The notes below the pieces were generated by a model. That model had not been told where the DNA came from. It did not search any database and saw only the letters and a program-made list of their open reading frames with translations. Of a stretch of 64,000 nucleotides of DNA, positions 3,937 through 61,979 are shown one piece after another (the stretch's first letter is position 1; each line of letters starts with the position of its first letter). The stretch comes from Labilithrix sp. (GTDB lineage: Bacteria > Myxococcota_A > Polyangia > Polyangiales > Polyangiaceae): NCBI GenBank assembly GCA_046351255.1, contig JAXLYU010000014.1, positions 187,730 to 251,729 of the forward strand. Direction: 5' to 3'. A program made the position numbers and the translations under genes.

Positions 3937-4998
<1,062 letters not shown>

Positions 4999-36531: not shown

Positions 36532-37937
36532 TCAGCGGGGCTTTCGCCTCTTCGGTCCGCGATGGAGCCAGCGATAGAGCGTCGAGACGTCGACCTCGAG
36601 GATGGTGGCGGCGGCGACCTTGTCGCCGCCCGTGTGCTGGAGGACGCGCGCGACGTGGCGCATCGTCATTTCGCGGATCGAGGTGTTCAGGGCGTCGGGC
36701 GGGAGAGGGTGGACCGCGGGGTCGCCCGTGACGGACGGCTGGGCGTCGCGGCCTCCGCTCGCCTGCATCGCGGCCACGTCTGCCTCCTCGACGCGCGTCG
36801 TCTTGCCGAGCACCACGAGGCGCTCGATGGTCGCCTGGAGCTCGCGGATGTTGCCGTGCCACGGTAGGCGCAGGAAGAGCTCGTGGGCCTCGGGCGCGAT
36901 CGACTCGACCTGCGAGCGCGGATTGCGTGCGCGCGCGTCGTCGAAGAAGTATTGAATCAGCGAGGGGAGGTCGTCTCTCCTTTGGCGGAGCGCCGGGACC
37001 TCGATCGCGAGGACGTTGAGGCGGAAATAGAGTCCTCGCGGAACTTGCCGGCGCGCACCGCGACGGAGAGATCGCGGTGCGTCGCGGCGACGAACCGGAC
37101 GTCGACCGGGCGCTCGTGATCGCCGCCGACGGGACGGATGCCTTTTCCTTCGAGGACGCGGAGCATGCGGCCCTGGAGCTCGATTGGCAGATCCGCGATC
37201 TCGTCGAGGAAGAGCGTGCCGCCCTCGGCCTCCGCGATGAGGCCGCGGCGGGCGCGGGTCGCGCCCGTGAAGGCGCCGGCGACGTGGCCGAAGAGCTCGC
37301 TGTCGAGGAGCGTGGAAGGGATCGCGCCGGCGTTGACGACGACGTAAGGACGATGACGGCGCGGGCCGCGCGCGTGGATGCGCGCCGCGAGGAGGTCCTT
37401 GCCCGTGCCGGTCTCACCGATGAGCAGCACCGGCGCCGTCGAGTGCGCGACGCGGTCGGCGGACTCGAGGGCGAGCGCGAGGGCGGGGGACGAGCCCACG
37501 ATGGTCCCGGGCGAGAACGGGCGCGGCGGGACCACGCTGCGGCCGCCTTCGAGACGGATGCCCTCGGTTTCGGACACCGCTCGCTCGACGCTCGACTGGA
37601 GCAGCCCGCCGTCGATCGGCCAGAGGAGGTAATCAGAGGCGCCCCGGCGACCGGCTTCGAGGAGGTTCGTCGCGCTGGCATCGCTGCCGACGAGGATGAC
37701 CTTGGTCGCGGGGCTCTGCTCGCGCGTCGAGCTCAGGAGGTCGAAGCCCGCTGGATCTGCGAGCTCGTGGCGGGCCACGACCACGTCGACGGGCTGCTGC
37801 GCAAGAGCGGCCATGGCCGCATCGCCGGTCGAGGCCACCTCGCATGCAAAATGCGGCGCGAGCGCGGTCTGCAGGTGAGCAGCCGCGTGGTCGTCCTCGT
37901 CGACGATCAAGACACGGAACCGGCGTCGCGTGACCAT
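36532..37937 (-). pseudogene. Sigma-54-dependent response regulator (NtrC/Fis family) interrupted by a 1-nt frameshift
   Basis: Receiver domain (VLIVDED...), AAA+ sigma-54 domain (VLLIGETGTGKDLLARAIH, ESELFGH, GGTLFLDEI) and C-terminal Fis HTH (MRHVARVLQHTGGDKVAAATILEVDVSTLYRWL) are all present. The frame breaks in FRED|LYFRLNV (observed GAGGACTCTATTTCC, expected GAGGACCTCTATTTCC) near 37032. Confidence 0.65.
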
Positions 37938-44370: not shown

Positions 44371-44776
44371 ATGAAGCTCTCGCTCGCTACGCTGTCGGCA
44401 GCAATTTCGGTAATGACGCTAGGGGCTTGCGCCACCGCCGCCGCCGAGGACAGCGGCTCGACCGAGGAGCGTCACCGTCACGCAGCGCGCCTCGCCGCCG
44501 TCGGCGGGCGTCTCCGTCATTCACGTCTGCGTCGATGACGACCTCGACGCGTGCGCGACCAACACGGGCGCGCCCCCGATGCCCTTCACCGTCGACGTGC
44601 CCGCCGATGGGCGCGAGTCGGTCTACGAGATGAACCTGCGCGCTTCACGGAGCAGCGCGCCCGTGCGCGTGCATCGGTTCGTGCTCGGCGACGGCGCGCC
44701 TCGCATCGAGACCGATCTCGACTCCGCTCACGCGACGCCGTTCGTGGCGCGCGCGTCGTGGTCGCCGCCGAAGTAG
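44371..44776 (+). pseudogene. Possible frameshifted small secreted lipoprotein
   Basis: ATG at 44371 gives MKLSLATLSAAISVMTLGACATAAAEDSGSTEE, then Arg-rich nonsense to a stop at 44538. The +1 frame from about 44470 reads ...VTVTQRASPPSAGVSVIHVCVDDDLDACATNTGAPPMPFTVDVPADGRESVYEMNLRASRSSAPVRVHRFVLGDGAPRIETDLDSAHATPFVARASW to 44776. Alternatively only the 65-aa ORF 44579..44776 is real. Confidence 0.3.
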
Positions 44777-47111: not shown

Positions 47112-49658
47112 TCAGTTCGGGCAGAGGTCGAAGCCGCTGGGGAGGGCGATCTCCGGCGTCGTCGCGTCGATCGACTCGATGAACGCGATGAGGTCGGCGC
47201 GATTCGTTTCCTTGCTCGGGTCGAAGTTCGGGGCGCCGGCCTTCCAGTGGCTGCCGAAGCTCGACGTCGAGAAGAGCGCCTCGAGCGTCGCCGCCTGGCC
47301 GTGGTGGAGGAACGGACCGCCGAGCGTCATGCCGTACAGCGAGGGCACGTTGTAGCCGCGGAAGCCCTGCGCGCGCGTCGGGGCGCCCGGACGCGCCTCG
47401 AGCGGCAGCGTCGCCGTCGCGTCGAGCGCGCCGTTCGCCTGGCGGATGCCGAACGTGCCGACGTTGCGGATGACGCACGAGAGCTGCAGCGGACGCTGCG
47501 CGACGTTGTCGGGATCGCCCTCCGCGCCGGGCTGCTGGAGCTGGATCCACGTCGTGTTCTTCGAGACGACGTCACCGGAGCTGAACTCCGGCGGCACCGG
47601 GTTCGCCGGGTTCGGGAAGATCGTCGTCGCGAGCGCGGTGTTGGTCGTCTCCGACGGCGTGAAGCCGCGGCGCGAGACGGTCCAGCCGGAGCCGCCGTGA
47701 CACTTGTCGCAGCGCGCGGTGGTCTTGAAGAGCTCGAGGCCGCGGGCGATGGCGGCCGCGTCACCGAAGCGCTTGCCAAGCGGCGGGCGCACCGTCTTCG
47801 CGTACTCGTTGATGTCGTCCCAGTCGGTGCGGAGGCAGTGCGCGCCGGTGGTGACGCCCTTCAGGCCGTCTGCGATCTCCTTGACCGCGGGAGCGCCGAG
47901 CGCGCCGGGGAGCGCGCCCGCCGCGTCGGTGCCGCGCCGCGTCTCCTTCGAGGGATCGGTGCAGTCTCCCGTCGCGGGCGCGTTCGTCACCGCGCCGAGG
48001 CCGCCGGACACACCGCGCGTGTTCGCCTCGAAGTCGTGCATCTCGTCGATGATGCCGGTCCAGTTGAAGAGGCGCTGCTTCTGCGTGCCGGGGCCGTGCG
48101 AGAACGACCCGTCCACGGAGGTGCTCTGGCGCGGGCCGGCCGCGAAGATCCAGGTCATGTTGTCACTGAATGCGTCGGGGTGACACGAGCCGCAGCTCGA
48201 CCACGCCTGACCGTTCGCGGTCGGTGCGGTGGTCGCGTTGCCGTTGCCCGACCAGCGGCCGCGACCGGTGAAGAAGAAGTGACGGCCGCGATCGATGTTG
48301 GTGGTGGCCGGCGCGGTGGACTCGACGACCGCGGCCACGTTCTGGCTGGTGAGGTCGAGGACAGCGAGGCGGTGCGAGCCCCAGCAGTTGACGTACGCCT
48401 TCTGCAGCTTGCTCGCGAGCGCGATGCCGTTCGGGTTGTGACACGCCTTCACGTCGCTCGCGACCGGCGCGCCCTGCACGTCGATCTGCTTCGCCTGCGG
48501 CGCGCCGATCGCGACCGCCGCGCCGCCGTAATCGACGCGCTCGATGACGTCCGCCGCGCGCGAGACGGTGTACGCGATCTTGGTCCCGGGGACGAAATCG
48601 ATGTCGACCGTGTCACCGAGGAAGAGCTTCGGGCCGGCGGGCAGCGCCTGGACGAGCTGCGTGAGGTTCGCGGAGCCGAGCGCGCCCGTGACCTCGGTCT
48701 TCGCCGTGAGGTCGCCGACGTACACGACGGCGTAGAGGTTCTTGTCGAAGCCGAGCGGCAACGCGGGGGACGACGAGATCGACGTGACGAAGACCTGGCT
48801 GCCGGAGACCGCGACGGAGAAGAGCTGGTTCGGCGAGGTCTTCTGCTCGAACGACGGCTCCGTGTTGGTGAACGGATTGAAGTCGATGGCGCCCTTCGCG
48901 GTGCCGTCCACGCCGAAGAGGCGCACGTGACCGATGCGTCCGTCGTTCTGGGCCTCCTTGCCGGCGACGGGCGAGCCGTAGAACTCGGTCACGACGACGG
49001 TCTCGTCGCTCTCGCTCGTGTCGCCGTTGTTCGTGACGAGCACCGCGCGGGGGTTGCGTACCGCGCCGCCCGACGTGCGGGTGAAGGTCGCGACGTCGAT
49101 CACGCCGAGGGTGCTCTCCGCGAACTCGGCCACGAAGAGCTTCGTGCCGCCGGGAGAGATCGCGATGCCGGTGGGCTCGGAGCCGACGGCCACCGTCTTC
49201 GTGATGCTTGGCGTGGCGGTGTCGATGCCGCTGATCTGGACGACGGTGGCGTCGCCGCGGTTCGCGACGAACGCGGTCTTGCCGTCGGCCGCGATCACGA
49301 TCGACGAGGGCTCCTTGCCGGTCTTGAACGCGGAGAGCCGCGTGTTGTCGGACGTCTTGAAGAAGGAGACCGAGCCGTCCTCCGGGTTGACCATGCCGAC
49401 GATGGCGTCGTCCTCGCTGATCGCGATGGTGCCGGACTTCGACGACCGCTTCGCGAAAGGCAGCGTGGTCGTGGCGTCCGTGCCGGCGTCCACGGGCGGG
49501 GACGTGCTGTCCTGGTTCCCGTTCGCGTCGGTGCCTCCCGCATCGACGCCAGGGGTGACGGGTGCGGTGTCGTCATCACCGCAGCTCGCGGTCGAGGCGG
49601 TGACCGCGCCGGCCATGGCGGCGGCGAGGAGGAGGGAACGATTAAGGATTCGACTCAT
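47112..49658 (-). CDS. Beta-propeller (YVTN-type) fused to di-haem cytochrome c peroxidase/MauG-like domain, lipoprotein
   Basis: Lipobox MSRILNRSLLLAAAMAGAVTASTASC. Repeated blades (TAFVANRGDATVV, KLFVAEFAESTLGV, KAYVNCWGSHRLAV). Two haem sites, CGSCH and CDKCH, are followed by a peroxidase-like C-terminus. Confidence 0.75.
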   Translation of the reverse strand: MSRILNRSLLLAAAMAGAVTASTASCGDDDTAPVTPGVDAGGTDANGNQDSTSPPVDAGTDATTTLPFAKRSSKSGTIAISEDDAIVGMVNPEDGSVSFFKTSDNTRLSAFKTGKEPSSIVIAADGKTAFVANRGDATVVQISGIDTATPSITKTVAVGSEPTGIAISPGGTKLFVAEFAESTLGVIDVATFTRTSGGAVRNPRAVLVTNNGDTSESDETVVVTEFYGSPVAGKEAQNDGRIGHVRLFGVDGTAKGAIDFNPFTNTEPSFEQKTSPNQLFSVAVSGSQVFVTSISSSPALPLGFDKNLYAVVYVGDLTAKTEVTGALGSANLTQLVQALPAGPKLFLGDTVDIDFVPGTKIAYTVSRAADVIERVDYGGAAVAIGAPQAKQIDVQGAPVASDVKACHNPNGIALASKLQKAYVNCWGSHRLAVLDLTSQNVAAVVESTAPATTNIDRGRHFFFTGRGRWSGNGNATTAPTANGQAWSSCGSCHPDAFSDNMTWIFAAGPRQSTSVDGSFSHGPGTQKQRLFNWTGIIDEMHDFEANTRGVSGGLGAVTNAPATGDCTDPSKETRRGTDAAGALPGALGAPAVKEIADGLKGVTTGAHCLRTDWDDINEYAKTVRPPLGKRFGDAAAIARGLELFKTTARCDKCHGGSGWTVSRRGFTPSETTNTALATTIFPNPANPVPPEFSSGDVVSKNTTWIQLQQPGAEGDPDNVAQRPLQLSCVIRNVGTFGIRQANGALDATATLPLEARPGAPTRAQGFRGYNVPSLYGMTLGGPFLHHGQAATLEALFSTSSFGSHWKAGAPNFDPSKETNRADLIAFIESIDATTPEIALPSGFDLCPN

Positions 49659-49763
49659 GGCCGCCCGACGGCAACGTCCGTGCCCGCGATCCCCCCCGCT
49701 AGACGCGCGAAATGCTGGGCTTGGCCGGTGGTCGACCGGTGGTCGGCCAGTGGTCGACCAGGC

Positions 49764-52700
49764 TCACCCGCGCGGGGCGAGGCCTGGCGCGAGGACGCGC
49801 GCGAGCGGGGCGTCGAGGTCGTCGCCGAGGCGCGCGACCCCGCCCTCGACGGACGCGGCGAGCTTCGCGTAGCCGAGGAGGCCTCGCTCCGTGAGCGCCG
49901 GCGTGGCGGCCCGCGCGATGCGATCGGCGAGGGCCGGCGCGCCAGCGGCGGAGGCGAGTCCGGCGAGCGCGAGGCGCGCGAGGGGTGAAGCGAGCGGCGA
50001 GGGATCGAGCGCGAAGAGCGCGATGATGCCGAGCGCGGTGCTGAACGCGGCCGGCGAAGGTCGATCCGCAGCGCGCGCCACCGCGGCGCGGGCGAGCGTG
50101 TGCAGCATGTCCGCGCGCAGGCCCTCTGCGACGAGCAGCGGCGCGCCCGTGAACACGCGCGGATCGTCGGCGATGGTGCGCCAGGCGCCCGCGTAGTCGT
50201 CCTCCCACAGCGAGACCGCGATCTCGGAGACCGCCGCGTAATACCGCTGGACGTTAGGGCCTACGGAGCTCCAGAAATGGAGCGCGGCGCGCGCACGCTC
50301 GCGCGCGACGGCGGGTCCGTGGGAAAGGAGCCACCCCGTGGTGGCGTGGTTCAGGCTGACGTCGCTCATGCGATGCCGGTTCCGTCGCACGCTCGCGTCG
50401 CGGTACTCCCCCTCGACGTGCAGCGTGAGCTCGCGGAAGCTGCCGAGATAGTAGAGCGCGTACATGTAGAAATGCCGGATCGACATGAGCTCCCAGCCCA
50501 CCGTCTGCGAGGCGGCGAAGAGGCGCTCGAGCGCGACGGGCGCGAGCGCGACGCCTTCGCGGAGATTGCCGCGCTGGAGCTCGATGATGGCGCGCGTACC
50601 CATCGCCATCGCGCGATGATGGTCGTCGAGCTCCGTGGCGAGCGCGTCGACCTGCGCGAGCAGGCGATCGGTACGACGGCGTGACCAGCCGCCGTAGAGG
50701 CCCGAGTAGGTCGCCTCCGCCAGGAGCGCACGGAGCGCACGCACGTCGTCGCCGATGCCGAGCGCCTGCGTGAGGCCGAGCGCGTGCACCGCGCCCGCGC
50801 GAAACGGGTCGATGAGGAGGAAGCACCCCGCGATCGTCCAGGCTAGATCCACGCGATTGCGCGTCGAGGTGGGGGCCGGCTCGCGCGTGTCCTTCTCGCG
50901 CACGAGCTTCGTCCCACGGAGCCGCAGGCGAAGGCGACCGCCGATGAAGTCGAGGACGCCGTGGCGATCGACGCGATAACCATCGAGCTTCCCGGCGGTG
51001 GAGAGCTCGCGGAGCATCGCGAGGCCGCGCTCGAGCTCGCCCGCGGTGAGCCACTGCTCCGCCGCGCGGCGACGGGTGTCGATCGCCGTCGCCGCGTCGT
51101 CGAGCGAGGCCGCGCGCTCGAGCTCCTCCGCTGCGGCGACGTGATCCTCGGCCCGGCGATGGCACTCGGCGAGCCGCTCGCGGAGGGCACGCTCCTCCGT
51201 CGGTCCCGCGAGCGCGAGCAGATGGCGGAGCCAGCCGGCCGCACGATCGAACGCGAGCACGAGCTCGGCCTCGCTCGCGGCGGCCTCCACGTAGGCGCGC
51301 GCACGTGGGTCGCGGGCGCCGAGCAGGTGCCGCGCGACGTCGTCGTCCGGCATCTTCGTCTGGAGCATCGCGTCCGCGAGCGCGGCGTGCGTCGCCCGGC
51401 GCTCCTCCTCGCCGAGCCGCTCGAGCAGATGCTGGCGAAGGACGTCGTGGTAGACGTCGAAGCGCTCGATGCCGGGGCCGACCTCGCGATCGATGCGGCA
51501 CAGGCGCTCCGCCACGAGCGCGTGGAACGCGGAGCGACCGGTGCCGCGCGCGACGTGCACGAGGACGCGCGTATCGAGCGGCGCCTCGTTGACGGCGAGC
51601 AGATCGAGCACGCGCCGCGCGGCGGGCGCGATCGCATCGAGGCGCGCTCCGAGGAGCTGCGTGGGATCCGCGCTGGGGTTGGTCCCCGCGGACCAGGCGA
51701 GCGTCTCGATGAGGAACGGAACGCCGTGGGTCGAGCCGAGCGCGCGCGTGTCGACGTCGAGCGACTGTGCGAGCGCGAGCACCTCGTCGTCGCGAAGCGG
51801 GCCGAGCTCGATCTCCTCGATACGCCGGCCCGCGGCGCCGAGGCGGCCGATGAGGCGCTGGCTTCGCGCGTCGGGACCGCGCATGGCGACGACGAGCGAG
51901 ACCTCCGGATCCTGCGCGAGGAGCTGCGTGAGGAATCCGAGCGAGTCCGCGTCGGCCCACTGCAGATCGTCGACGACGAGTAGCGTTCGCCCGCACCGGC
52001 GCAGCACCGCGCCGAGCTCACGCGCGGCGCGGCGCACCTGCTCGAGCGCGGTCAGGAGCGTCGGCGTCGCGCTCTGGCCCGGCGCGCGGAGAGCGGGGAA
52101 GAGCAGCCCCAGCGCCTCGTGCGTCTCGTCGGTCGCGATCGCGTCGGTCGCGACGAGCTCGTCGATGACGGCATCGATCGCGTTCCACCGGATCGACTCG
52201 CTGACGTAGCAGCGCGATCGTACGACCCGCGCTCCTTCCTCGCCGCAGAAGCGATCGAGGACGGAGGTCTTGCCGAGGCCCGGCGCGCCCACGAGCACGG
52301 CGATGGACCGCGCCGCGCCGCGCAGCCGACGGAGCTCCTCTTCGCGCCCGACGAAGGTGCCGCGCTTGCGACGTCCCGCCTCGATCGCGATCGGATCGGG
52401 CGTGGCGCGTTCTTCCTGGAGGATCCGGCGAACGTGCTCGAGGTCGGGTCGTCCGTCGGGGGACGGCGCGAGGAGCTCGACGGCGAGCCGGGCGAGCGGC
52501 TCCCCCGCCGGCTCGTGCGGCGCGAGCCCCAGCCGCTTCGCGCGGCGCACCTGCTCCGGCGTGCCGACGAACGGGAGGTAGCCGTGGAGCGCCTGGAAGA
52601 GCAGCACCCCGAGCGCGTAACGGTCGGCGGCGGCGCCGATCGTGCCCCCGAGCTCGAGCTGCTCCGGCGCCATGTACGCGAGCGTGCCGATCGGCCGGGC

Positions 52701-53345
52701 GTTTCGGCCCCCCGTGATGCGCGCGATGCCGAAGTCGAGGATGACGACGCGGCCGCTCCCGTCGACCATGACGTTCTCCGGCTTGAGGTCGCCGTGGACG
52801 AGGCCTTCGCGCTCGAGGAAGGCGAGCGCGTCGACGATCTGGAGCGCGGCCTCGACGAGGCGGCGGCGATCGCACCCGAGAGACGGATCGCACCCGAGAG
52901 ACGGATCGCACCCGAGAGACGGATCGCGCTCGGGCGCTTCGGTCGGCTCGTCGGAGCGCTCGTCGTTCGACACGTCGAGGTTCGTTGGGCTCACCGTGCG
53001 CGTGTGCGTGATGGTGGCGTGCGCCTCGTCCGCCACGCCGACCCAGCGGAGGACGTTCACGCCATCGACGTGCTCGAGGAGGATGCACTCGAGCTCTGGC
53101 GCGAGCACCAGCTCCAGCATCGTGACGAGGTTCGGATGCGAGAGGTCGCGGATGACGCGGAACTCGCGCTTCAGATCGTTCGGGTTCTTCCGCGCCCCCA
53201 CGAGGAGCTTGAGGGCGACGCGCACATCCCGCATGCGGTCGTGCACGAGCTCGACCCGGCCGTGACCGCCGCGACCGAGATGGCGGATCCACTCGAAGCG
53301 AGCCCCGAGGTCCGGCGCGAGGTCGTCGTCGCGCTTCGGATGCAT
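49764..53345 (-). CDS. Ser/Thr protein kinase fused to AAA+ NTPase and helical repeat domains
   Basis: Kinase motifs: HLGRGGHGRV (G-loop), VALK, HGDLKPENV, DFG, TLAYMAPE. The kinase insert carries ERDPSLGCDPSLGCDPSLGCD. The Walker A motif is VLVGAPGLGKTS, the Walker B motif is LLVVDDLQWAD, and a long helical C-terminus follows. The start is either ATG 53345 (MHPKRDDD) or ATG 53411 (MQAVG...). The further 5' part of the track ORF is rejected. Confidence 0.8.
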   Translation of the reverse strand: MHPKRDDDLAPDLGARFEWIRHLGRGGHGRVELVHDRMRDVRVALKLLVGARKNPNDLKREFRVIRDLSHPNLVTMLELVLAPELECILLEHVDGVNVLRWVGVADEAHATITHTRTVSPTNLDVSNDERSDEPTEAPERDPSLGCDPSLGCDPSLGCDRRRLVEAALQIVDALAFLEREGLVHGDLKPENVMVDGSGRVVILDFGIARITGGRNARPIGTLAYMAPEQLELGGTIGAAADRYALGVLLFQALHGYLPFVGTPEQVRRAKRLGLAPHEPAGEPLARLAVELLAPSPDGRPDLEHVRRILQEERATPDPIAIEAGRRKRGTFVGREEELRRLRGAARSIAVLVGAPGLGKTSVLDRFCGEEGARVVRSRCYVSESIRWNAIDAVIDELVATDAIATDETHEALGLLFPALRAPGQSATPTLLTALEQVRRAARELGAVLRRCGRTLLVVDDLQWADADSLGFLTQLLAQDPEVSLVVAMRGPDARSQRLIGRLGAAGRRIEEIELGPLRDDEVLALAQSLDVDTRALGSTHGVPFLIETLAWSAGTNPSADPTQLLGARLDAIAPAARRVLDLLAVNEAPLDTRVLVHVARGTGRSAFHALVAERLCRIDREVGPGIERFDVYHDVLRQHLLERLGEEERRATHAALADAMLQTKMPDDDVARHLLGARDPRARAYVEAAASEAELVLAFDRAAGWLRHLLALAGPTEERALRERLAECHRRAEDHVAAAEELERAASLDDAATAIDTRRRAAEQWLTAGELERGLAMLRELSTAGKLDGYRVDRHGVLDFIGGRLRLRLRGTKLVREKDTREPAPTSTRNRVDLAWTIAGCFLLIDPFRAGAVHALGLTQALGIGDDVRALRALLAEATYSGLYGGWSRRRTDRLLAQVDALATELDDHHRAMAMGTRAIIELQRGNLREGVALAPVALERLFAASQTVGWELMSIRHFYMYALYYLGSFRELTLHVEGEYRDASVRRNRHRMSDVSLNHATTGWLLSHGPAVARERARAALHFWSSVGPNVQRYYAAVSEIAVSLWEDDYAGAWRTIADDPRVFTGAPLLVAEGLRADMLHTLARAAVARAADRPSPAAFSTALGIIALFALDPSPLASPLARLALAGLASAAGAPALADRIARAATPALTERGLLGYAKLAASVEGGVARLGDDLDAPLARVLAPGLAPRG
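52868..52927. repeat. 18-bp tandem repeat x3.3 (gatcgcacccgagagacg) inside the kinase gene
   Basis: Three perfect copies plus a partial fourth. Encodes DPSLGC x3 on the minus strand. A near-identical 26-nt copy, gatcgaacccgagagacggatcgcgc, occurs at 60379..60404. Confidence 0.8.
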
Positions 53346-53489
53346 GAAGCGGCGATCATAAACCGAGCGTTCTCCGATCCCCAGTGCGTGATACGTTCCC
53401 ACCGCTTGCATTCGGGGACCCGCACGGCCCCTCTCTCGGAGGGCGCGGAGGAAGACAGCTTCGACGACGCCGCTCCGCCGGAGCCGGGG

Positions 53490-54710
53490 GTGGTCGCTGT
53501 GTTTTCCGGGCGCGCGATCGGGGTGCCGTTCGTGCATGGTCGTCCGGTCGGACGCGAGGCGCTCGCGGAGCTGGGCGTCAAGGACGACCAGATGAGCCGC
53601 GAGCATTTCGAGTTACGCGCGGACAAACGCGGGCTCACCCTCGACGACCTGAAGAGCCGCAACGGGACGTTCTTCGGAGGCGCTCGGATCTCGAGCCCGG
53701 TCCCGGTGACCGCAGGCGACGTGGTAAGGGCCGGTCGCACCCTCTTCGTGGTGGTGGACGACGCCCGCTCGTTCGAGCGCGCGCCCCCGCGGCTCGATGG
53801 GGACGAGGTTCGGGGGCCCGAGCTCACCAAGGTGCTTGCGCGCGCGCAGGCGATGAGTCAGCTCGAGCAGCTCCTCGTGGTGGGGGAGAGCGGAAGCGGC
53901 AAGGAGCACGTGGCGCGCGCGTTCCACGGCGGGGACGCCAAGGCGCCCTTCGTCGCCCTCAACTGCGCGTCGCTCCAGGGCGGCATCGTCGAGCGCCTAC
54001 TCTTCGGCGCGCGAAAGGGCGTGTACACGGGCGCAGAGGCGGACGCCGAGGGCTACGTACGGGCGGCGGAGGGCGGGACGCTCTTCCTCGACGAGATCGC
54101 GGAGCTCGACGCCGCGGTGCAAGCGAAGCTCCTTCGCTTCGTCGAGACGCGCGAGTACTTCCCCCTCGGCGATACGCGCCCGCGCACGGCGAAGGTGCGC
54201 ATCTGCTTCGCGACGCTGAAGGGCCTCGAGGTCGAGGTCGAGGCGCATCGTTTTCGCGAGGACCTCTTCCACCGCATCGCGACGCCGATCGTGCACGTGC
54301 CGCCGCTCCGCGAGCGCCGGGCGGAGATCCCCTTGCTCATCGAGCTCGAGGTGCGCCGTCACGGCGGCCGCGTGAAGCCCACGATCGGCTTCGTCGAGAG
54401 CGCGCTTCGCTCACCGTGGCCGGGGAACGTCCGCCAGCTCCGGCGCACCGTCGTGGCGGCGCTCGTGGCAGCGGAGCTCGAAGGACGCGCGACCGTCGGC
54501 GCGAGCGATCTCCCGCTGGTGTCCGCCAACCCCGCGCCCGCACCCGCGCCCGAGCCCGCGCCCGAGGCCGAGGCCGCGATCCGTGCTCAGCCGACCGACG
54601 AGGAGATCGAGCGCGCGGTCGAGGCCGCGGCCGGCAACGTCTCGGTGGCGGCGCGCGCGCTCGGCATCCATCGCAGCAAGCTCCGTCGCTGGCTCGAGCG
54701 GAAGCGGTAA
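53490..54710 (+). CDS. Sigma-54-dependent transcriptional regulator with N-terminal FHA domain
   Basis: FHA (VVAVFSGRAIGVPFVHGRPVGRE...SREHFELRADKRGLTLDDLKSRNGTFFGG), sigma-54 AAA+ (LVVGESGSGKEHVARAFH, GAFTGA-like, GGTLFLDEIAEL) and C-terminal HTH (AAAGNVSVAARALGIHRSKLRRWLER). The start is uncertain. GTG at 53490 is preferred because ATG 53340 would overlap the divergent kinase start. Confidence 0.75.
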   Translation: MVAVFSGRAIGVPFVHGRPVGREALAELGVKDDQMSREHFELRADKRGLTLDDLKSRNGTFFGGARISSPVPVTAGDVVRAGRTLFVVVDDARSFERAPPRLDGDEVRGPELTKVLARAQAMSQLEQLLVVGESGSGKEHVARAFHGGDAKAPFVALNCASLQGGIVERLLFGARKGVYTGAEADAEGYVRAAEGGTLFLDEIAELDAAVQAKLLRFVETREYFPLGDTRPRTAKVRICFATLKGLEVEVEAHRFREDLFHRIATPIVHVPPLRERRAEIPLLIELEVRRHGGRVKPTIGFVESALRSPWPGNVRQLRRTVVAALVAAELEGRATVGASDLPLVSANPAPAPAPEPAPEAEAAIRAQPTDEEIERAVEAAAGNVSVAARALGIHRSKLRRWLERKR

Positions 54711-54721
54711 CCGTGGCGGGC

Positions 54722-55552
54722 TCAGAGCCTCTCGTGGAGGTAGTCGTCGACGAAGATCTTCGCCGCGGTCGTGCTGGCGCCGGCGAAGGTGAGCCCGGCG
54801 AGGAGCTCCGGGATGCCCGCCCTGATCACGGTGAGCGGCGCGTTGCGTGCGTTCCCGTCCACGATGAACGTGACCTGCTTGGCGTCGAAGTCGACCTCGA
54901 TCGACACCTCGATCCAGCGCTGGAGCGGGACCTCGATCGGGGCGAGGAGGAGCCTCGTGTCGGCCGTCGCCATGACGAACTGCTCGTAGAGGGCGAAGCC
55001 GTCCGGTGAGAGGTGGGCGTAGAGATCACTGGCGGTGTCGCCAGCGCGGAACCGCCACATGTTGATCTCGATGGCGCCCGCGGTCGGGGCTCGATCGACG
55101 TAGAGCGAATAGGAGAGCCGCGCGTGGTGCACCAGCTCGGAGCCGATGGGGCCGTTCCGCCAGTATGCAGCCCGTACGCTGCCCTTTCCCGTGATCTCGC
55201 CCGAGAGCGATCGCGGCGTGGAGCGCGCGACCGCCGAGGAGAGGGTGACGACCGAGCCCTCTCCCGCGACCTCCGTGGCCCACGTGCTCCCTTCACGGTC
55301 GAAGTCCTCGCACACGCTCGCGGTGGTCGTCGGATGGGCGGCGCAGAACGTCAGCGGCCCTGCGTCGGCGGCGTCGCTCGTGCTCGACGCCGGCGCGTCG
55401 GCCGCGGCGTCGACGCCTCCTTCGCCGGCGACCGAAGACGTCGGCCCGCCGTCCGCCGTGAGCGGCCCACCCGAGAGATCGTCGAGCGACGTGACGAGGC
55501 TGCACCCGGCGAGCAGCGGCCCCACGAAGACGGCGACCCGGCGTAGCAGCAC
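54722..55552 (-). CDS. Lipoprotein, hypothetical
   Basis: MLLRRVAVFVGPLLAGCSL has a lipobox, then an acidic/Ala-rich linker and a 200-aa beta-rich domain. Confidence 0.5.
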   Translation of the reverse strand: MLLRRVAVFVGPLLAGCSLVTSLDDLSGGPLTADGGPTSSVAGEGGVDAAADAPASSTSDAADAGPLTFCAAHPTTTASVCEDFDREGSTWATEVAGEGSVVTLSSAVARSTPRSLSGEITGKGSVRAAYWRNGPIGSELVHHARLSYSLYVDRAPTAGAIEINMWRFRAGDTASDLYAHLSPDGFALYEQFVMATADTRLLLAPIEVPLQRWIEVSIEVDFDAKQVTFIVDGNARNAPLTVIRAGIPELLAGLTFAGASTTAAKIFVDDYLHERL

Positions 55553-55604
55553 GACGGGAAGGATAGACGTCCGGGCGCGGGAGGAGGTGATCAGGATGGG
55601 ATGC

Positions 55605-56096
55605 TCACGGTCCGACCTGGAATCGCACGGTGTTGCTCTCGATCTCCGCGGCGCGCACCGTGGTGGAGTAGGCGCCCGGAGGGAGCGGCGGCGAGAACAC
55701 GTCGAGCCGGAGCCTGCGCGCGAGGCGCTGGCCCGGCGCGATGGTGGTCGTCTCGGGGCGTGGTGTCGGAGGCGGCCCGCTCGCGACGTCCTTCCCGTCG
55801 CCGTCGCGCACGCGCAAGAACAGCGGCGCCGACTCGAGCACCTGAACCGGCAGGTCGACCGCCGCCGCGCCCCGATTCACGAGGACGACCTCGACCTCGA
55901 CGCTCGCGGGGTCGACGTACCGCTCACGCGCGACCGAGAGGGTGGCGACGAGGGCCGTCGCGCGCGGGCTCGGGGTCGAGGTCGGGGTCGGGGTTGGGGT
56001 CGGGCTTGGCGCGGGGGTGGGGGCCAACGAGGAGGGGCTGCACGCCATGGCCGACATCAAGACCGTCATGGCGAGCGCCTTCATCCCGATGCGCAT
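55605..56096 (-). CDS. Lipoprotein with Pro/Thr linker, hypothetical
   Basis: MKALAMTVLMSAMACSPSS has a lipobox. The PTPAPSPTPTPTPTSTPSP linker is encoded by a ggggtc hexamer-like repeat. Confidence 0.5.
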   Translation of the reverse strand: MRIGMKALAMTVLMSAMACSPSSLAPTPAPSPTPTPTPTSTPSPRATALVATLSVARERYVDPASVEVEVVLVNRGAAAVDLPVQVLESAPLFLRVRDGDGKDVASGPPPTPRPETTTIAPGQRLARRLRLDVFSPPLPPGAYSTTVRAAEIESNTVRFQVGP

Positions 56097-56227
56097 CGTA
56101 GCCCGAGCGGGCGGGCGCCCGGAGCCTCGGCGCCCGTCGCCCCGGCCCCGGCCCAGCCCCAGCCCCCCTTGACAACGGCGGGCGCGGATTTATCGGTCGA
56201 TGAGAGGTACCAAGCAAGGGGATAACG

Positions 56228-56536
56228 ATGGCGTGTTCGTCGACCGATCCGGCCGCAATTTGGATCGATCAGGCGGAGCGGAGCTTGTTCGCCCTCGCGA
56301 GCGAGCTCAGGCGTGTTCCGCTCGGGGAGAGCACCAGGCAGCTGCACGTGCGCGCGCTCGAATTGAAGCGAGAGATGGTCCGCTGGCGCGAGCACCCGCC
56401 GGACCAGGACGTCCTCACCCGAGCGCTCGAGGAGATCGAGCGTCTCGCGCGCGAGGCGCGGCGCCATCAGACCCCGGTCGATCGGAGCCGTTCGGCGGCC
56501 CTCGCCGTCGTCAGCCGCGCGCGCTTCGGCGCGTGA
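56228..56536 (+). CDS. Hypothetical small helical protein
   Basis: An AAGGGGA Shine-Dalgarno sequence lies 6 nt before ATG 56228. Coding is GC3-rich and the ORF is 102 aa. Confidence 0.4.
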   Translation: MACSSTDPAAIWIDQAERSLFALASELRRVPLGESTRQLHVRALELKREMVRWREHPPDQDVLTRALEEIERLAREARRHQTPVDRSRSAALAVVSRARFGA

Positions 56537-56828
56537 AGGGCGACCGCGATCACGCGAAGCTGAAGCTCGGCCCGACGCTCGAGACCCGGTCCGCGTTCGC
56601 GGTCGCGCGAAGCTCGGCGTGGTGTGGCGCGGCGCGGACGCATCGAGGCGTCGAGGCGCCGAAGCGTCGCGGCCGGGGCACGCATGGGACCGTCCGGGCG
56701 AGCGCCCCGCACATGACCGCCACCGATCGCGGCCAGCGCACGCTCGACACGGCAGCGCGCGGCTCTCTTCAGCCTCGAGCGCTCGAACAGACCTGGCCGA
56801 TGACATCGACCAGGACGCTCCCGTGTAG

Positions 56829-57320
56829 CTAGTTCGCTTGGTTCTTCTTGCCGGTGCCGTCGGCGCGGATGGTGACGGTCAGGTCGCCGAGCGAGGTGCC
56901 GCTCTGGTTGTGATCGTGCCAGCGGACGCCGGCGATGATCTGCTCGTTCGCCGCCTCCGTCGTGCCGGCGTTGACCGGCGTACCGATGAGGCCCATCGAT
57001 TCGAGCGTGATGCCCGGCGCTGGCGTCTCGACCTCCCACTGCATCGACACGATGTACTTGTGAGGTCCTTCCTCGAACGTGCGCCACGCCAGCTTCGCCT
57101 TCACGCCGTGCACGTCGACGGGGAGCTCGGCGCGCTTCGCCTTGTCGTCGGGCGGCGCGTGGGCGCGGGCGCCTGGCTCGACGTGGGAGCGCAGGTCGGT
57201 CGGGGTCCCGACGGGGCCCGCGGGCGTCGTCTCCTTGCTGCAGGCCGCGAGCAGCAGCGCGAGCGCGAGCGTGAGCGCGGGCGCGACCGAGGGGGTGAGA
57301 GGGCGTCGGGGAGTGGTCAC
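56829..57320 (-). CDS. Lipoprotein, hypothetical
   Basis: MTTPRRPLTPSVAPALTLALALLLAACSKE has a lipobox. Confidence 0.5.
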   Translation of the reverse strand: MTTPRRPLTPSVAPALTLALALLLAACSKETTPAGPVGTPTDLRSHVEPGARAHAPPDDKAKRAELPVDVHGVKAKLAWRTFEEGPHKYIVSMQWEVETPAPGITLESMGLIGTPVNAGTTEAANEQIIAGVRWHDHNQSGTSLGDLTVTIRADGTGKKNQAN

Positions 57321-57329
57321 GACGGAAGC

Positions 57330-57743
57330 TTACTCGAGGCGCGCCTCCCACGTGATGGCGACCTCGTCCGCGAGCGTCTCGCTGACGGAGCAGTACTTCT
57401 CCACCGCGAGGGAGACCGCGCGCGTCAGCTTGTTCGTGTCGACGGCGCCGCGCGCGATGAAGACGAGGTGCATCTTCGTGAATGGCGCAGGGACCGCGTC
57501 CCTTCGCGTGCCCTCGATCTCGATGCGGAGGCCCTCGAGCGGCTCCTTCTGCTTGTTGACCAGGATGTGCACCACGTCCATCGCGCTGCAGCTCGCGACG
57601 GCGGAGAGGAGGAGCTCCATCGGGCGCATGCCGCGGTCCGTACCGCCGATGTCCGGCGCGCCATCGACGACGAGCTTTCCGCCCGAGCCGGTCGCCGTCG
57701 CCTCGAAGGCCGCATGACCGACACGCTCGAGGACGACCTTCAC
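57330..57743 (-). CDS. OsmC/Ohr-family protein
   Basis: GTG at 57743 overlaps the cysK stop (GTGA). VKVVLERVGHAAFEA...MRPMELLLSAVASCSAMDVV...HLVFIARGAVD...LAVEKYCSVSETL carries both conserved Cys. The 5' Arg-rich part of the track ORF is rejected. Confidence 0.7.
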   Translation of the reverse strand: MKVVLERVGHAAFEATATGSGGKLVVDGAPDIGGTDRGMRPMELLLSAVASCSAMDVVHILVNKQKEPLEGLRIEIEGTRRDAVPAPFTKMHLVFIARGAVDTNKLTRAVSLAVEKYCSVSETLADEVAITWEARLE

Positions 57744-58645
57744 GGCTTCGCTCCGGTCGAGAACAGCGGAGACGAGAGATACCGGTCTCCGCGGTCGCAG
57801 ATGATGCACACGATCGTCGCGTCGCGGCTCTCGGCGGCGAGCTCGCGCGCGAGCTTCCTTGCCGCCCAGACCGCCCCGCCGGAGCTGACGCCGCCGAAGA
57901 CGCCTTCCTTGCGGGCGAGGTCGCGCGTGGTCGCCTCCGCGTCGGTCTGCGCGATGTCGATGATGCGATCGACGCGCGCCGGCTCGTAGATCTTCGGCAG
58001 ATACGCCTCCGGCCACCGGCGAATGCCGGGGATGCTCGCGCCCTCGGTGGGCTGGCAGCCGATGATCTGGATGGAGCGGTCCTTCTCCTTCAGGAAGCGC
58101 GATGTCCCCATGATCGTGCCGGTGGTCCCCATCGCGCTGACGAAATGGGTGATCTCGCCGCTGGTCTGGCGGACGATCTCGGGGGCGGTGGTCTCGTAGT
58201 GGGCGCGCCAGTTGTCGGGGTTCGCGAACTGGTCGAGCATCACGTAGCCGCCGCGCGCGACCTTCTCACGGGCGTGATCGATGGTCGCCTCCATGCTGCC
58301 CGCGGCAGGGGTGAGGACGACGTGCGCGCCGAACGCCCGCATCACCTGCACGCGCTCCGCGGTCGCGTTCTCGGGCATGACGAGCTCGATCTCGTAGCCG
58401 CGCGCGGCCGCGATCATCGCGAGCGCGATGCCCGTGTTGCCGCTCGTCGGCTCGATCAGCTTCATGCCGGGGCGGAGATCGCCTCGCTCCTCGGCGCGCA
58501 GGATCATGGAGCGGGCGGGGCGGTCCTTCACGCTCCCACCGGGGTTGTTCCCCTCGAGCTTGCCAAAGAGGCGAATTCCCGGGCGATCCGTGCCCGGATC
58601 CAGCTCCACGAGGGGGGTCTCACCTACGAGATCGGCGATCTTCAC
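57740..58645 (-). CDS. cysK: Cysteine synthase (O-acetylserine sulfhydrylase, CysK/CysM family)
   Basis: PLP motifs GGSVKDRPA, TSGNTGIALA and GTTGTIMG. The ORF is 301 aa. Confidence 0.9.
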   Translation of the reverse strand: MKIADLVGETPLVELDPGTDRPGIRLFGKLEGNNPGGSVKDRPARSMILRAEERGDLRPGMKLIEPTSGNTGIALAMIAAARGYEIELVMPENATAERVQVMRAFGAHVVLTPAAGSMEATIDHAREKVARGGYVMLDQFANPDNWRAHYETTAPEIVRQTSGEITHFVSAMGTTGTIMGTSRFLKEKDRSIQIIGCQPTEGASIPGIRRWPEAYLPKIYEPARVDRIIDIAQTDAEATTRDLARKEGVFGGVSSGGAVWAARKLARELAAESRDATIVCIICDRGDRYLSSPLFSTGAKP

Positions 58646-58668
58646 GATGTCGCAGTACGGTAGCGGTC

Positions 58669-59562
58669 ATGGCAACGGAGCCGAAACGTTTTCGCGAGCT
58701 GGAGTCCGCCATCGATGCGGTGGTGGCCAGCTATACGGGCTCGCTCGAGATCGACAACCTCGAGAGCGCGGCGCTTCCCAGCAAGCGGCGCGTGATCGAG
58801 GCGCTCGAGCATCTGAAGTCGGCGCTCTTCGTCGGGTTCTATTCCACGCACGCGCTTCATCGCGACAATCTCCGCCAGGTCATCGCGGAGCACCTCTACG
58901 CGGCGCATCACATCCTCGTCGATCAGATCGAGCGAGCGCTCTCCTACGACCACTGGATGGGCCGGGCGGAGAAGCCGCTTCCTCCAGGATCGGGGGAGGG
59001 CGTGGTGCTCGCGCTCTTCGAGGCGATCCCGGAGCTCCGGCGCCTCCTGAACGAGGACGTACGCGCGGCCTACACGGGGGATCCCGCGGCGAAGAACGTC
59101 GAGGAGATCGTCTTCGCGTATCCGTCGCTCGAGGCGATCGTCGCCTATCGGCTCGCGAACCGCCTCTGTCGCGCCGGCGTGCCGATGATCCCTCGCATCA
59201 TCACGGAGCACGCGCACTCGCGCACGGGCGTCGACATCAGTCCCGGCGCGAGCATCGGTGAGCGGTTCTTCATCGACCACGGCACCGGCGTGGTGGTGGG
59301 AGAGACCACCGTCATCGGGAACGGCGTGAAGCTCTATCAGGGCGTCACGCTCGGTGCGCTCAGCGTCCCGCGTCGCGACGATCAGAAGAAGCGCCATCCC
59401 ACGCTGGAAGACGACGTCACCATCTACGCGGGCGCCACCATCCTCGGGGGCGACACCGTCATCGGCAAGGGCTCGACGATCGGCGGAAACGTCTGGCTCA
59501 CGCATTCCGTTCCGCCAAACTCGAAGGTCTTCGGCCGGCCGCGCGAGGAGGAGATGCCTTAG
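58669..59562 (+). CDS. cysE: Serine O-acetyltransferase
   Basis: SATase N-domain plus left-handed beta-helix hexapeptide repeats (IDHGTGVVVGETTVIGNGVKLYQGVTLGA...IYAGATILGGDTVIGKGSTIGGNVWL). It is divergent from cysK. Confidence 0.85.
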   Translation: MATEPKRFRELESAIDAVVASYTGSLEIDNLESAALPSKRRVIEALEHLKSALFVGFYSTHALHRDNLRQVIAEHLYAAHHILVDQIERALSYDHWMGRAEKPLPPGSGEGVVLALFEAIPELRRLLNEDVRAAYTGDPAAKNVEEIVFAYPSLEAIVAYRLANRLCRAGVPMIPRIITEHAHSRTGVDISPGASIGERFFIDHGTGVVVGETTVIGNGVKLYQGVTLGALSVPRRDDQKKRHPTLEDDVTIYAGATILGGDTVIGKGSTIGGNVWLTHSVPPNSKVFGRPREEEMP

Positions 59563-59596
59563 ACGGCGGCGCCGTCGCTGGTGATACGCTGCAGCG

Positions 59597-60496
59597 GTGG
59601 GGACGAACGAGCGCCCAGCGAGAGGACCGCTCGAGAGCGAGTCCGACGAGATCCCGACCCGGATCCTCGACGGGGCGCCGGATCTCGAGGACGACGGCCC
59701 TACCATCATGCACCGCGACGAGCCCACGATCCGCACCGAGGTGGACACCGAGGACCTCCGCGCGAAGCTTCCTCCGTCGATGCGCGCGCTCGAGGCCGCT
59801 CCCAGGCTGATGCCGAAGCCGCCCGCGCCGGCGGTGCCGGCGGTGCCGGTGGTACCGGTAGAGCCGCCCGCGCCCGACCTCGATCCGGAGCCGCCATCGA
59901 TCATCACCGAGATCGGCGCGGTGCCGCGCATGGTCACGGTGCCGAACATGGTCACGACGCCCAAGAGGGCGCCGCTCGCTCCCCTCATGGAGCGTGAGAC
60001 CGAGAACACGAAGAAGATGGCGGCCGTGTACGTCGCGCCGACGCCGGCGTCGGCCCCGGCCCCGGCGCTCGTCCCCTCCGCGCCGCCGTCGGACGATCTG
60101 CCCTACGAGGTGCCCGGTCTCGAGAAGAGCGGGCGAGGGAAGTGGCTCGCGATCGCGCTCACCGCGATCGTCTGCGTGGGCGCCGGCGGCGTCGCCGTGG
60201 GCCGGGTGAGCGCGCTCAACACGCCCGCCCCGTCCAGGGCACCCAGCGCGACGACGGCGCCCGCCGCCACGCCGCCGCCACCACCGCCCGAGCCCGTGGC
60301 CTCCGCGGTCGAGCCAGCACCGTCGTCGCCGTCGCCATCGCCATCGCCCCCGGAGAGCGTCGCTCCGGCGCCGCGTCCGATCGAACCCGAGAGACGGATC
60401 GCGCCGGCGCCGCGACCGTCGCCGCCGCCTTTCGTCGCGCGGCCTCCTGCGCAAAAGCCGCCGAGCGGGACGATCGTCCGCGACAACCCGTTCTGA
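59597..60496 (+). CDS. Pro/Ala-rich single-pass membrane protein, hypothetical
   Basis: GTG start. A transmembrane helix WLAIALTAIVCVGAGGVAVG sits between Pro-rich segments. Contains the 26-nt copy of the kinase repeat motif at 60379..60404. Confidence 0.45.
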   Translation: MGTNERPARGPLESESDEIPTRILDGAPDLEDDGPTIMHRDEPTIRTEVDTEDLRAKLPPSMRALEAAPRLMPKPPAPAVPAVPVVPVEPPAPDLDPEPPSIITEIGAVPRMVTVPNMVTTPKRAPLAPLMERETENTKKMAAVYVAPTPASAPAPALVPSAPPSDDLPYEVPGLEKSGRGKWLAIALTAIVCVGAGGVAVGRVSALNTPAPSRAPSATTAPAATPPPPPPEPVASAVEPAPSSPSPSPSPPESVAPAPRPIEPERRIAPAPRPSPPPFVARPPAQKPPSGTIVRDNPF

Positions 60497-60527
60497 GCGC
60501 GCGCGAGCGAGGCGCGCGATCGAAAGA

Positions 60528-60824
60528 TCACCCGATCCAGGCGCGGCCGCGACCGAGGCGGTGCCGCGTGAACTGAGCGCAGTCGATCGCGAGCTCCTCG
60601 CTCACGAGGCAATCGGGATGCTCCGCGTCCCGGCAGCGCTCGGGAAGGACGAGCCGCTGGCGCTTCACCGCGACCGTCACGTTCGGGAAGGCGACGGACT
60701 GCACCACCGGACGTGTGCCTTCGAAGCCGACGATCTTGCCGACGCCAGGGAGGAGCACGCAGTCGGGCACGAGCACGTAGTGCCCCAGCTCTGGCGTGAA
60801 GTCGGCGCCCATGACGCGCGACAA
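60528..60824 (-). CDS. Hypothetical small protein
   Basis: 98-aa ORF with ordinary composition (MGADFTPELGHYVLVPDCVLLPGVGKIVGF...). No motifs were recognised. Confidence 0.3.
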   Translation of the reverse strand: MSRVMGADFTPELGHYVLVPDCVLLPGVGKIVGFEGTRPVVQSVAFPNVTVAVKRQRLVLPERCRDAEHPDCLVSEELAIDCAQFTRHRLGRGRAWIG

Positions 60825-60863
60825 CCTGCGTCGCGCGCCGCCCGCGTCAAGCCCATCGGCGCG

Positions 60864-61850
60864 TCAGCGCGCCCAGCGATCCTTCGACACGAAGAGGCCC
60901 TTCTCTCCGACCACCACGACGTGGCTCGGGGCGAGCGCGATGGCGTGGAGCCAGTCGGGGATCTCGATGCGTTCGACCGTCTTGCCGGCGAGGTTCGTGA
61001 TGATGAGGCCGTTGCTGTTGTCGACGGCGTAGATGTGGTCGCCGCGCTGGGCGAGATCGACGAGGTGCTCTCGGTCTTCGTCGCGAAGGCTCTTGGCACG
61101 CGCAGCGCCCGGCGCCTGCTGGCGAAGGCCCCAGCCGCCTGCGGCGTACGTGATGCCGGCCTCGCTCATGATCGCGGCCTTCATCGTCGCCTCGCCGCCG
61201 GCATCGATCTTCGTGCGCTCGGCGCGGGGGATCGACTTCCACTCGTGCGTCGTGCCAGACGCGGGCAGCGGGAACGTCACGACCTCGCGTCCGAGCTCCC
61301 TCTGCGCGAAGGTGACCGTCATCTTCGAGGTGGTCGCGTCGAAGCGGCACGAGAGATCGGGGAGGTCGACGAAGCCGATCGAACCCGAAGAACGGAGCGA
61401 CGGGTTCGACGCGAGGAAGGCCTCGATGTGCAGCTTGATCTCGCCGGTGGCCTTGCGGCTCGCGCCGTCGATCACGGTGAGCACGTAGCTCCGGTCGGGC
61501 GGCGTGTGTCCGTACGGATCGAGCGGCGAGTCATCGCGGAGACCGCACGCGATGACGCGATCGCCCGCGGTCGTGAGCGAGTCGTTCGGAATGCGTCCGG
61601 CCACGGTGGCGGTCTTCCGCATCGTGTCGAGGTCGACCACGTCGATGCGGTTCTGGTTGTCGCCCACGAACGCGACACGGCCGGCGACCGCGACCGACTG
61701 GTAAACGGCGCCTCCCGCCGGCGCCAGGGTGCGGTAGCCGTCCGTCGCCGTGATGTCTGCACCAGTCTCGGACGCCGGGGCGGGGTCCTCCGCGCACCCG
61801 ACCGCCAGCATGATCGCTGAAAATCCAAGCATATAGGCGTTATGCGACAT
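60864..61850 (-). CDS. Lipoprotein, beta-propeller-like, hypothetical
   Basis: ATG at 61850 (MSHNAYMLGFSAIMLAVGCAEDP, lipobox). The signal-peptide codons are unusually AT-rich for this genome. The 915-aa track ORF upstream of this point is a frame artefact. Confidence 0.55.
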   Translation of the reverse strand: MSHNAYMLGFSAIMLAVGCAEDPAPASETGADITATDGYRTLAPAGGAVYQSVAVAGRVAFVGDNQNRIDVVDLDTMRKTATVAGRIPNDSLTTAGDRVIACGLRDDSPLDPYGHTPPDRSYVLTVIDGASRKATGEIKLHIEAFLASNPSLRSSGSIGFVDLPDLSCRFDATTSKMTVTFAQRELGREVVTFPLPASGTTHEWKSIPRAERTKIDAGGEATMKAAIMSEAGITYAAGGWGLRQQAPGAARAKSLRDEDREHLVDLAQRGDHIYAVDNSNGLIITNLAGKTVERIEIPDWLHAIALAPSHVVVVGEKGLFVSKDRWAR

Positions 61851-61979
61851 ATCCCTACGTGTAGCACCGAGGCGCGCGCCGTCGAGCAAGTACGCGCGCA
61901 ATCCGCGCAAAATCAGGGAAGCCACGAGGGCGGCCTCGCCGCGTCGTGTCGCCGGTCGACCTGCAGTTATCATCCATGG

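Follow-up and report, generated by a model that had tools for sequence, protein, structure and literature searches.

A young, strain-variable 18-bp tandem repeat in a kinase gene of Labilithrix sp. and a possible source of its unit in a neighbouring gene

How does a short piece of coding DNA come to stand three times in a row within one gene and once more, almost letter for letter, within an unrelated gene nearby? The question is raised by a stretch of 64,000 nucleotides from Labilithrix sp. (Polyangiaceae), positions 187,730 to 251,729 of contig JAXLYU010000014.1 in assembly GCA_046351255.1, which we refer to as the window and which has a G+C content of 70.5%. Inside a gene for a PknK-like Ser/Thr kinase the window carries a tandem array of an 18-bp unit, and within a gene for a Pro-rich protein it carries a single dispersed copy that we call locus B. 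An earlier description made from the letters of this DNA, the sequence-only reading, had noticed both places and suggested either a small repeated element or a recombination scar. We find in the array a coding mini-satellite that is young and in frame, i.e., a variable number of tandem repeats (VNTR) locus that is polymorphic among strains. As to where its unit came from, we lean towards the view that the Pro-rich gene supplied a short patch by copying to a loop of the kinase that lies in a non-conserved insert, and that the patch was amplified there by slippage.

The tandem array and its copy number among strains

The array lies at 52868..52927 on the minus strand, where Tandem Repeats Finder delimits a repeat of period 18 with 3.3 copies, 100% matches and no indels (score 120). 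Reading the sequence directly gives the same structure, so that the three perfect copies and the partial fourth previously reported in the kinase gene stand as described. The unit, GATCGCACCCGAGAGACG in its plus-strand spelling, is read in the kinase frame as GAT CCG TCT CTC GGG TGC, that is DPSLGC, and its three copies make up residues 141-158 of the protein. Within this sequence the short direct repeat GATCGC brackets a 12-nt core, ACCCGAGAGACG. The partial fourth unit, GATCGCGC (52922..52929, minus strand), encodes part of the residues E-R-D of the kinase, and the same 8-mer closes the copy at locus B; we propose it as the ancestral anchor of the array. A pattern search of the window with the 18-mer returned the three exact units and a fourth occurrence with one mismatch at 60379..60396.

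The number of units differs among close strains. A Logan contig from the run SRR13867564 (L039), 99.1-99.5% identical to the window, has 2.3 copies, and so has a contig in ENA from activated sludge (L044, run DRR046817), which is 98.8-99.9% identical. Over the array the sole difference of these two from the window is one 18-bp unit, the flanks being identical, and two allele states (2.3 and 3.3 copies) have thus been seen among three strains. The comparison of strains that the sequence-only reading had called for is therefore positive. The unit amounts to six codons, and because its length is a multiple of three the frame is kept, running on into helix alphaE and the catalytic loop in the three-copy and the two-copy alleles alike. 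Identical units and a number of copies that varies among strains lead us to consider the array young. In all the properties that we tested it behaves as a coding VNTR: the units are identical and head to tail, their length is a multiple of three and their number varies from strain to strain.

It might be objected that the difference in copy number was produced by the assemblers, which could have collapsed or expanded the repeat, and every sequence compared here is indeed a metagenome assembly. However, the whole array measures 42-60 bp, less than a single Illumina read, and 2.3 copies with the same flanks are found in both of two assemblies that were made independently in different studies. 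An artefact of this kind is in our opinion highly improbable.

These strains differ from the window at other places too. A segment of 80 bp at 54903..54982 is found in the window alone and is missing from five assemblies of close strains (L039, L044 and L050-L052); without it a lipoprotein-like open reading frame (ORF) of 276 aa at 54722..55552 (minus strand) is frameshifted in those strains, and no obvious direct repeat was seen at the junction. Conversely, about 107 nt present in L044 (positions 1138..1246 of that contig) are lacking in the window at 44469..44473, another strain-specific indel.

The copy in the Pro-rich gene and the origin of the unit

The dispersed copy is found at 60379..60404 on the plus strand. 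It reads GATCGAACCCGAGAGACGGATCGCGC and consists of one unit followed by the GATCGCGC tail, matching the kinase 26-mer GATCGCACCCGAGAGACGGATCGCGC at 25 of 26 positions. Ungapped extension in three registers found no similarity past these 26 nt. The gene that contains it (59597..60496, plus strand; G+C at third codon positions, GC3, 0.89) is an ORF for a Pro/Ala/Ser-rich protein of 299 aa with one hydrophobic segment, WLAIALTAIVCVGAGGVAVG, in which no Pfam family was found and which is 100% identical to MFO0740225.1, annotated as hypothetical in a metagenome-assembled genome (MAG) of Labilithrix sp. In this protein the copy reads (P)IEPERRIA(P), with APAPRP on either side. Locus B lies 7.5 kb from the array; the shared sequence is on the same DNA strand at both loci, and the two genes are read in opposite orientation. 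The claim of a one-mismatch, 26-nt copy in an unrelated Pro-rich gene of opposite coding orientation has thus held in every detail. At locus B the copy begins with the 12 nt GATCGAACCCGA, which recur exactly at 61377..61388, 1 kb downstream, where the similarity to the 26-mer (18/26) is at background level.

A match of this length is very unlikely to arise by chance in the window. In 79 fifth-order Markov simulations 0.013 dispersed 25/26 pairs were expected per window, against two observed, and for this 26-mer the expected number of hits with one mismatch or less is 1e-7 to 6e-7 in the window (a search space of 128 kb); for a genome of 10 Mb it rises to 2e-5 to 9e-5. These figures support the earlier statement that chance is negligible in so far as they make a chance match very unlikely. 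The second of the two observed pairs is of a different nature: it joins 37189..37214 to 54085..54110 in inverted orientation, represents a conserved motif of a sigma54 activator and of its probable paralog on the other strand near 37.2 kb, and its similarity extends into the flanks. The remaining dispersed matches of at least 22 nt are mostly paralogous sequences that also continue into the flanks or GC-only stretches of low complexity, and two of them (21/22 and 22/23) look like chance. Codon bias cannot explain the identity either, because rare codons occur in the shared segment whichever of the two frames is read: TCT, with 2.5% of the Ser codons, in the kinase, and in the Pro-rich protein AGA and GAA, with 0.7% of the Arg and 6.7% of the Glu codons. 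Taken together, the sequences indicate that a copying event probably links the two loci.

The two loci differ in age. The copy at locus B is identical in five contigs of close strains (L039-L043). In a lineage of 95% identity (L054, run SRR14271350) its position is unchanged and two nucleotides are substituted, GAG AGA having become GAA AAA (ER to EK). In the more distant homolog P0122 (37% identity by BLASTP, about 50% in the MAFFT alignment), which has a different genomic context, the residues P-E-R ... A-P are partly kept and encoded as CCC GAG CGC GCG CCG; the same residues are also partly conserved in the homolog P0129. Next to the distant orthologs of the kinase a search revealed no ortholog of the Pro-rich gene. 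Judged by these comparisons, locus B is the older of the two and evolves by point substitution, because it is fixed in the five contigs, has the same position in the 95% lineage and is partly conserved in P0122, whereas the kinase array is young.

What the kinase looked like before the array can be approached by removing all the units. The remaining sequence reads CCC GAG CGC GAT CGC CGC CGC CTC GTC (P E R D R R R L V), in frame and colinear codon by codon with GGG CGC GCG GAC CTC GCC CGC CTC GTC (G R A D L A R L V) of the ortholog P0001, as well as with the D-x-x-R-L that begins helix alphaE throughout the family (alignment A1, 13 homologs). The ancestral empty site would then have been GGCGGCGGC-GATCGCGC-TCGGG on the plus strand, and a zero-copy allele of the kinase would read GGCGGCGGCGATCGCGCTCGGG. 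Into such a site an 18-nt patch may have been copied from the Pro-rich gene, 7.5 kb off on the same strand, where GATCGAACCCGAGAGACG precedes the same GATCGCGC. The copying could have been a microhomology-anchored template switch or a break-repair patch, with GATCG as the anchor on one side and GATCGCGC on the other. It would have given a one-copy kinase allele, still in frame, with GATCGC direct repeats 18 nt apart, an arrangement on which slippage typically acts; these repeats could have nucleated a first duplication, and slippage would have led to two and then three copies. Later changes in number would come about by replication slippage or by unequal exchange among the units. In this account the tandem structure, the in-frame polymorphism, the difference in age and the microhomology are observed, whereas what the empty site was, which way the copying went and which enzymes carried it out we infer from the sequences of today.

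Several features of the present sequences are those of a templated insertion. The unit and its putative donor agree at 17 of 18 positions, and at 25 of 26 with the tail, for which the chance expectation is 1e-7 to 1e-2 depending on the framing. There is microhomology at both junctions, placed on the putative zero-copy recipient, without longer flanking homology, the flanks being unrelated. The single mismatch, where the donor has A and the kinase C, falls within the left anchor, a place that would fit recipient sequence having been retained, a mismatch having been corrected or a later substitution of Phe by Cys; a one-copy allele carrying the donor A at position 6 would read GATCGAACC. The recombination scar was thus the better half of what the sequence-only reading had suggested, in the sense that a short templated patch fits the anatomy of the locus, and we infer such a patch rather than demonstrate it.

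The most serious competitor is that the array is an ordinary slippage VNTR, whose unit arose in place from the ancestral loop, and that the 25/26 match to the Pro-rich gene is a coincidence. The match does stop abruptly at 26 nt, real DNA is richer in short near-exact matches than the Markov null (at a word length of W=24, nine were observed and 0.15 expected), chance alone yields, in Streptomyces sequences among 596 Gb of genomes, exact 18-mers and identities to locus B as long as 24 nt (L007, L014), and a genome scan covers many windows. On the other side, the expectation is 0.013 for the window as a whole and far lower for the 26-mer itself, and most of the surplus of other short matches comes from paralogy or from GC-only low complexity. 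Besides, the shared segment holds words that are rare in the genome (AGA/TCT), and the match takes in the 8-mer flanking the array, as would be expected of a microhomology-anchored copy. We regard a coincidence as unlikely, and yet keep for it about a quarter of our expectation, because many windows were scanned and genomes are heavier-tailed than Markov models.

A number of points weigh against the copied patch, or against parts of it. No allele with zero copies or one copy was seen among the three strains, so that the insertion step is a reconstruction. The kinase orthologs are 46-53% identical and their loop is hard to align, so that a single ancestral unit may also have arisen in place. 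The direction of copying relies on divergences of 5% and ~50% at locus B, and for the kinase on relatives that are either ~99% or at most 53% identical. The window, L039 and L044 are about equidistant, and either two or three copies may be ancestral. Copy numbers come from short-read assemblies, not from reads. Since many windows have presumably been scanned, a coincidence at ~1e-2 per window for any pair is not impossible. Finally, the account assumes that a change in loop length is probably neutral, or nearly so, for the function of the kinase.

Other explanations would do without a copying event of this kind. The two loci could be copies of a short dispersed repeat family, similar to the mycobacterial interspersed repetitive units (MIRUs) or the repetitive extragenic palindromic (REP) sequences, spread over the species and prone to tandem amplification; after all, one strand carries two near-identical copies within 7.5 kb, of which one is amplified and polymorphic. 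However, the window contains no further copy with up to three mismatches in the 18-mer, and its degenerate matches to the 26-mer stay at the simulated background, with a bimodal distribution of four near-perfect copies and then background. The 18-mer common to both loci, ACCCGAGAGACGGATCGC, gave 16 singletons in 185,579 species genomes (596 Gb), where ~17 are expected by chance, and 19 singletons in the metagenome collection of the Joint Genome Institute (JGI); all these matches are in unrelated taxa with unrelated flanks, and none is in Myxococcota, the source species and its close relatives being absent from both collections. The wide search that had been proposed for the 18-mer has therefore returned chance-level singletons only, within collections of that composition. 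Nor do the copies resemble MIRU, REP or enterobacterial repetitive intergenic consensus (ERIC) sequences, which would be intergenic or palindromic: both lie inside ORFs with a GC3 of ~0.9, without terminal inverted repeats or structure (fold z ~0), and locus B is positionally conserved and partly ancestral. The figure of two loci in 64 kb refers to the window, the sole part of the source genome covered. The suggestion of a small repeated element has accordingly lost ground, and we consider a family very improbable; we give just as little weight to its variant, a lineage-specific, very short element that lands in frame in genes, seeds coding mini-satellites and occupies many loci in the rest of the Labilithrix genome.

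A function of the unit could also be invoked, at the level of the protein or of the nucleic acid. In the former case selection would maintain the repeat and the number of Cys-containing DPSLGC units would tune the kinase in a contingency-like manner, through loop length, redox cysteines or docking. The unit is in frame and polymorphic, each copy brings one cysteine, and the position is that of the regulatory kinase insert of receptor tyrosine kinases. Against this, the motif appears in no homolog, the loop is not conserved and is predicted with very low confidence, DNA-identical units speak for recent expansion rather than long maintenance, rare codons argue against long-term optimisation, and two allele states have been seen. 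We think such tuning improbable, if slightly less so than a repeat family. In the latter case the unit would be a cis-acting signal at both loci, either a binding site for a protein or a structured RNA. Its identity at the DNA level, read in different frames and strands, might suggest as much, together with the distance of 479 bp from the array to the start of a sigma54 activator gene. However, the region folds no better than shuffled sequences (z = -0.10 for the mRNA-sense RNA and +0.18 for the DNA), Rfam gave no match in 49000..62000, and no promoter-like or terminator-like sites were found around the array. Moreover, the unit is not palindromic, a spacing of 18 bp puts successive copies off one helix face, and the two substitutions at the site in the 95% lineage follow protein codons. 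A structured RNA, which had been singled out for checking, was thus not detected, and a signal of either sort is extremely unlikely. Returning to the copied patch followed by slippage, it is this account that we prefer.

Three further candidates were discarded. A phase-variable contingency locus, in which repeat number would switch the gene by frameshift or promoter spacing, does not fit, the unit being in frame, both alleles encoding full-length kinase N-termini and no promoter-like site being present. There are no spacers as in clustered regularly interspaced short palindromic repeats (CRISPR), and a template/variable pair of a diversity-generating retroelement (DGR), which would span about 60-150 bp and differ mainly at template adenines, is at odds with a similarity limited to 26 nt in which one of seven adenines differs.

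The host kinase and its neighbourhood

The gene that hosts the array (49764..53345, minus strand; GC3 0.90) encodes a protein of 1193 aa with an N-terminal kinase domain, an ATPase domain of the AAA_16/AAA_22 type and a long helical C-terminal region. Pfam detects Pkinase (7e-32), AAA_16 (6e-16) and AAA_22. Its best homologs, from Polyangia and other Myxococcota, are likewise long kinases of the PknK-like kind; P0001-P0007 among them are 42-47% identical over the full length, and one homolog from Chondromyces crocatus (P0051) carries the name PknK. In alignment A1 the residues K46, E61, D186, N191 and D204-F-G are invariant. With a Pkinase domain that has its catalytic residues, an AAA_16 domain and a helical repeat C-terminus, the predicted protein has the composition of a PknK-like Ser/Thr kinase of the signal transduction ATPases with numerous domains (STAND) class. 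The catalytic loop reads HGDLKPEN, which places the protein among the non-RD type kinases. The motif HGDLKP, instead of HRDLKP, is found in this kinase and its seven closest homologs (A1; 52780..52800, residues ~183-190), and in more distant homologs HRD or HQD takes this place. From the source MAG the protein collection contains the neighbours MFO0740217.1 and MFO0740225.1 but not the kinase itself, which may have been annotated differently or as a pseudogene in the deposited record.

The array belongs to an insert of the kinase domain (residues 108-159; 52869..53024, minus strand) that AlphaFold2, alignment A1 and Pfam place between the hinge/alphaD region and helix alphaE. Pfam splits Pkinase into two stretches around this insert, the second of which begins at residue 161 (profile position 98), in agreement with the earlier placement of DPSLGC x3 in a loop between kinase subdomains. 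The repeat sits at the C-terminal end of the insert, which is ~50 residues long, directly before alphaE. The predicted local distance difference test (pLDDT) score of AlphaFold2 falls below 50 at residues 108-147 and 149-154, compared with 85-96 in the kinase core, and alphaE starts from residue 160. Among the 13 homologs of alignment A1 the insert is the most variable segment of the domain, in length as well as in sequence, and the DPSLGC motif occurs in none of them. Each unit would add six residues to a flexible surface loop. For the biology of the kinase there is probably little consequence, the change being confined to a loop that is not conserved.

Divergently from the kinase is transcribed a gene for an FHA-sigma54 enhancer-binding protein (53406..54710, plus strand), with the Pfam domains FHA, Sigma54_activat and HTH_8. 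The two genes form a divergent pair with a spacer of 60 bp, and the pair is kept in three relatives (L036, L037 and L038) at 46-61% identity; because of this conservation the arrangement suggests a signalling module from kinase to FHA activator. Exact look-ups of the kinase and activator proteins of the window gave no match, and the contigs that we reached via a neighbouring protein of 163 aa all end inside the activator gene. For the Logan contigs L050-L052 the end is at ~54085..54110, probably an assembly break at the repeated motif. The window has other coding tandem repeats as well, namely a 15-bp unit in 4.7 copies of 96% identity at 13151..13221 (GCCTCGAGCTCGGGA) and an 84-bp Cys-rich unit in 1.8 copies at 4585..4739, with related copies at 4382 and 4667.

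Comparison with known systems

If the proposed origin is true, this locus would show how a coding mini-satellite came into being in two consecutive stages, i.e., the patch copied through microhomology and the slippage that still changes the copy number of the strains. For bacterial mini-satellites an origin that can be traced has rarely been described. In Myxococcota the locus could be used as a natural marker of repair by template switch or end joining, and also as a strain-typing marker for the Labilithrix population of activated sludge; VNTRs are in use as bacterial typing loci.

Insertions templated through microhomology (by template switching, microhomology-mediated break-induced replication or fork stalling and template switching, MMBIR/FoSTeS, or as filler DNA in end joining) resemble what we see in the 18-nt patch matching nearby DNA of the same strand, in its bounds GATCG and GATCGCGC and in the lack of flanking homology. 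The documented cases are mostly eukaryotic or experimental, whereas the event at this locus is reconstructed from present-day sequences. In bacteria, end joining can capture DNA at breaks (PMC6379672), and repair similar to microhomology-mediated end joining (MMEJ) by a bacterial reverse transcriptase is reported in a preprint (bioRxiv 10.1101/2022.03.14.484287).

The position of the loop has a parallel in the receptor kinases PDGFR, KIT and VEGFR, whose kinase insert domain lies between alphaD and alphaE. The topological place in the fold is the same and the segment is likewise variable and disordered; unlike in those receptors, the insert described here is not conserved even in the closest orthologs. 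With the MIRU-VNTR loci the array shares a short sequence present at more than one locus, one of which has a tandem number that is polymorphic among strains. However, MIRUs are 46-101 bp long, lie mostly between the genes of operons and occupy dozens of loci, while our unit has 18 bp, both of its copies are intragenic, two loci are known and no family is detectable.

The closest relatives of the array are the coding VNTRs. Slipped-strand mispairing, in the account that Levinson and Gutman reportedly gave in 1987, produces in-frame coding VNTRs or mini-satellites of this type, and the likeness extends to the identical head-to-tail units, the length in multiples of three, the copy number that varies in near-identical strains and the location in a part of the protein that tolerates changes of length. 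The differences are that the repeat is found in a loop of a cytoplasmic signalling kinase and not in a surface protein, that it has just two to three copies, and that a second copy can be traced nearby. The array is therefore ordinary in kind, and what is unusual about it is a probable origin that can be traced through the 26-nt copy in the neighbouring gene.

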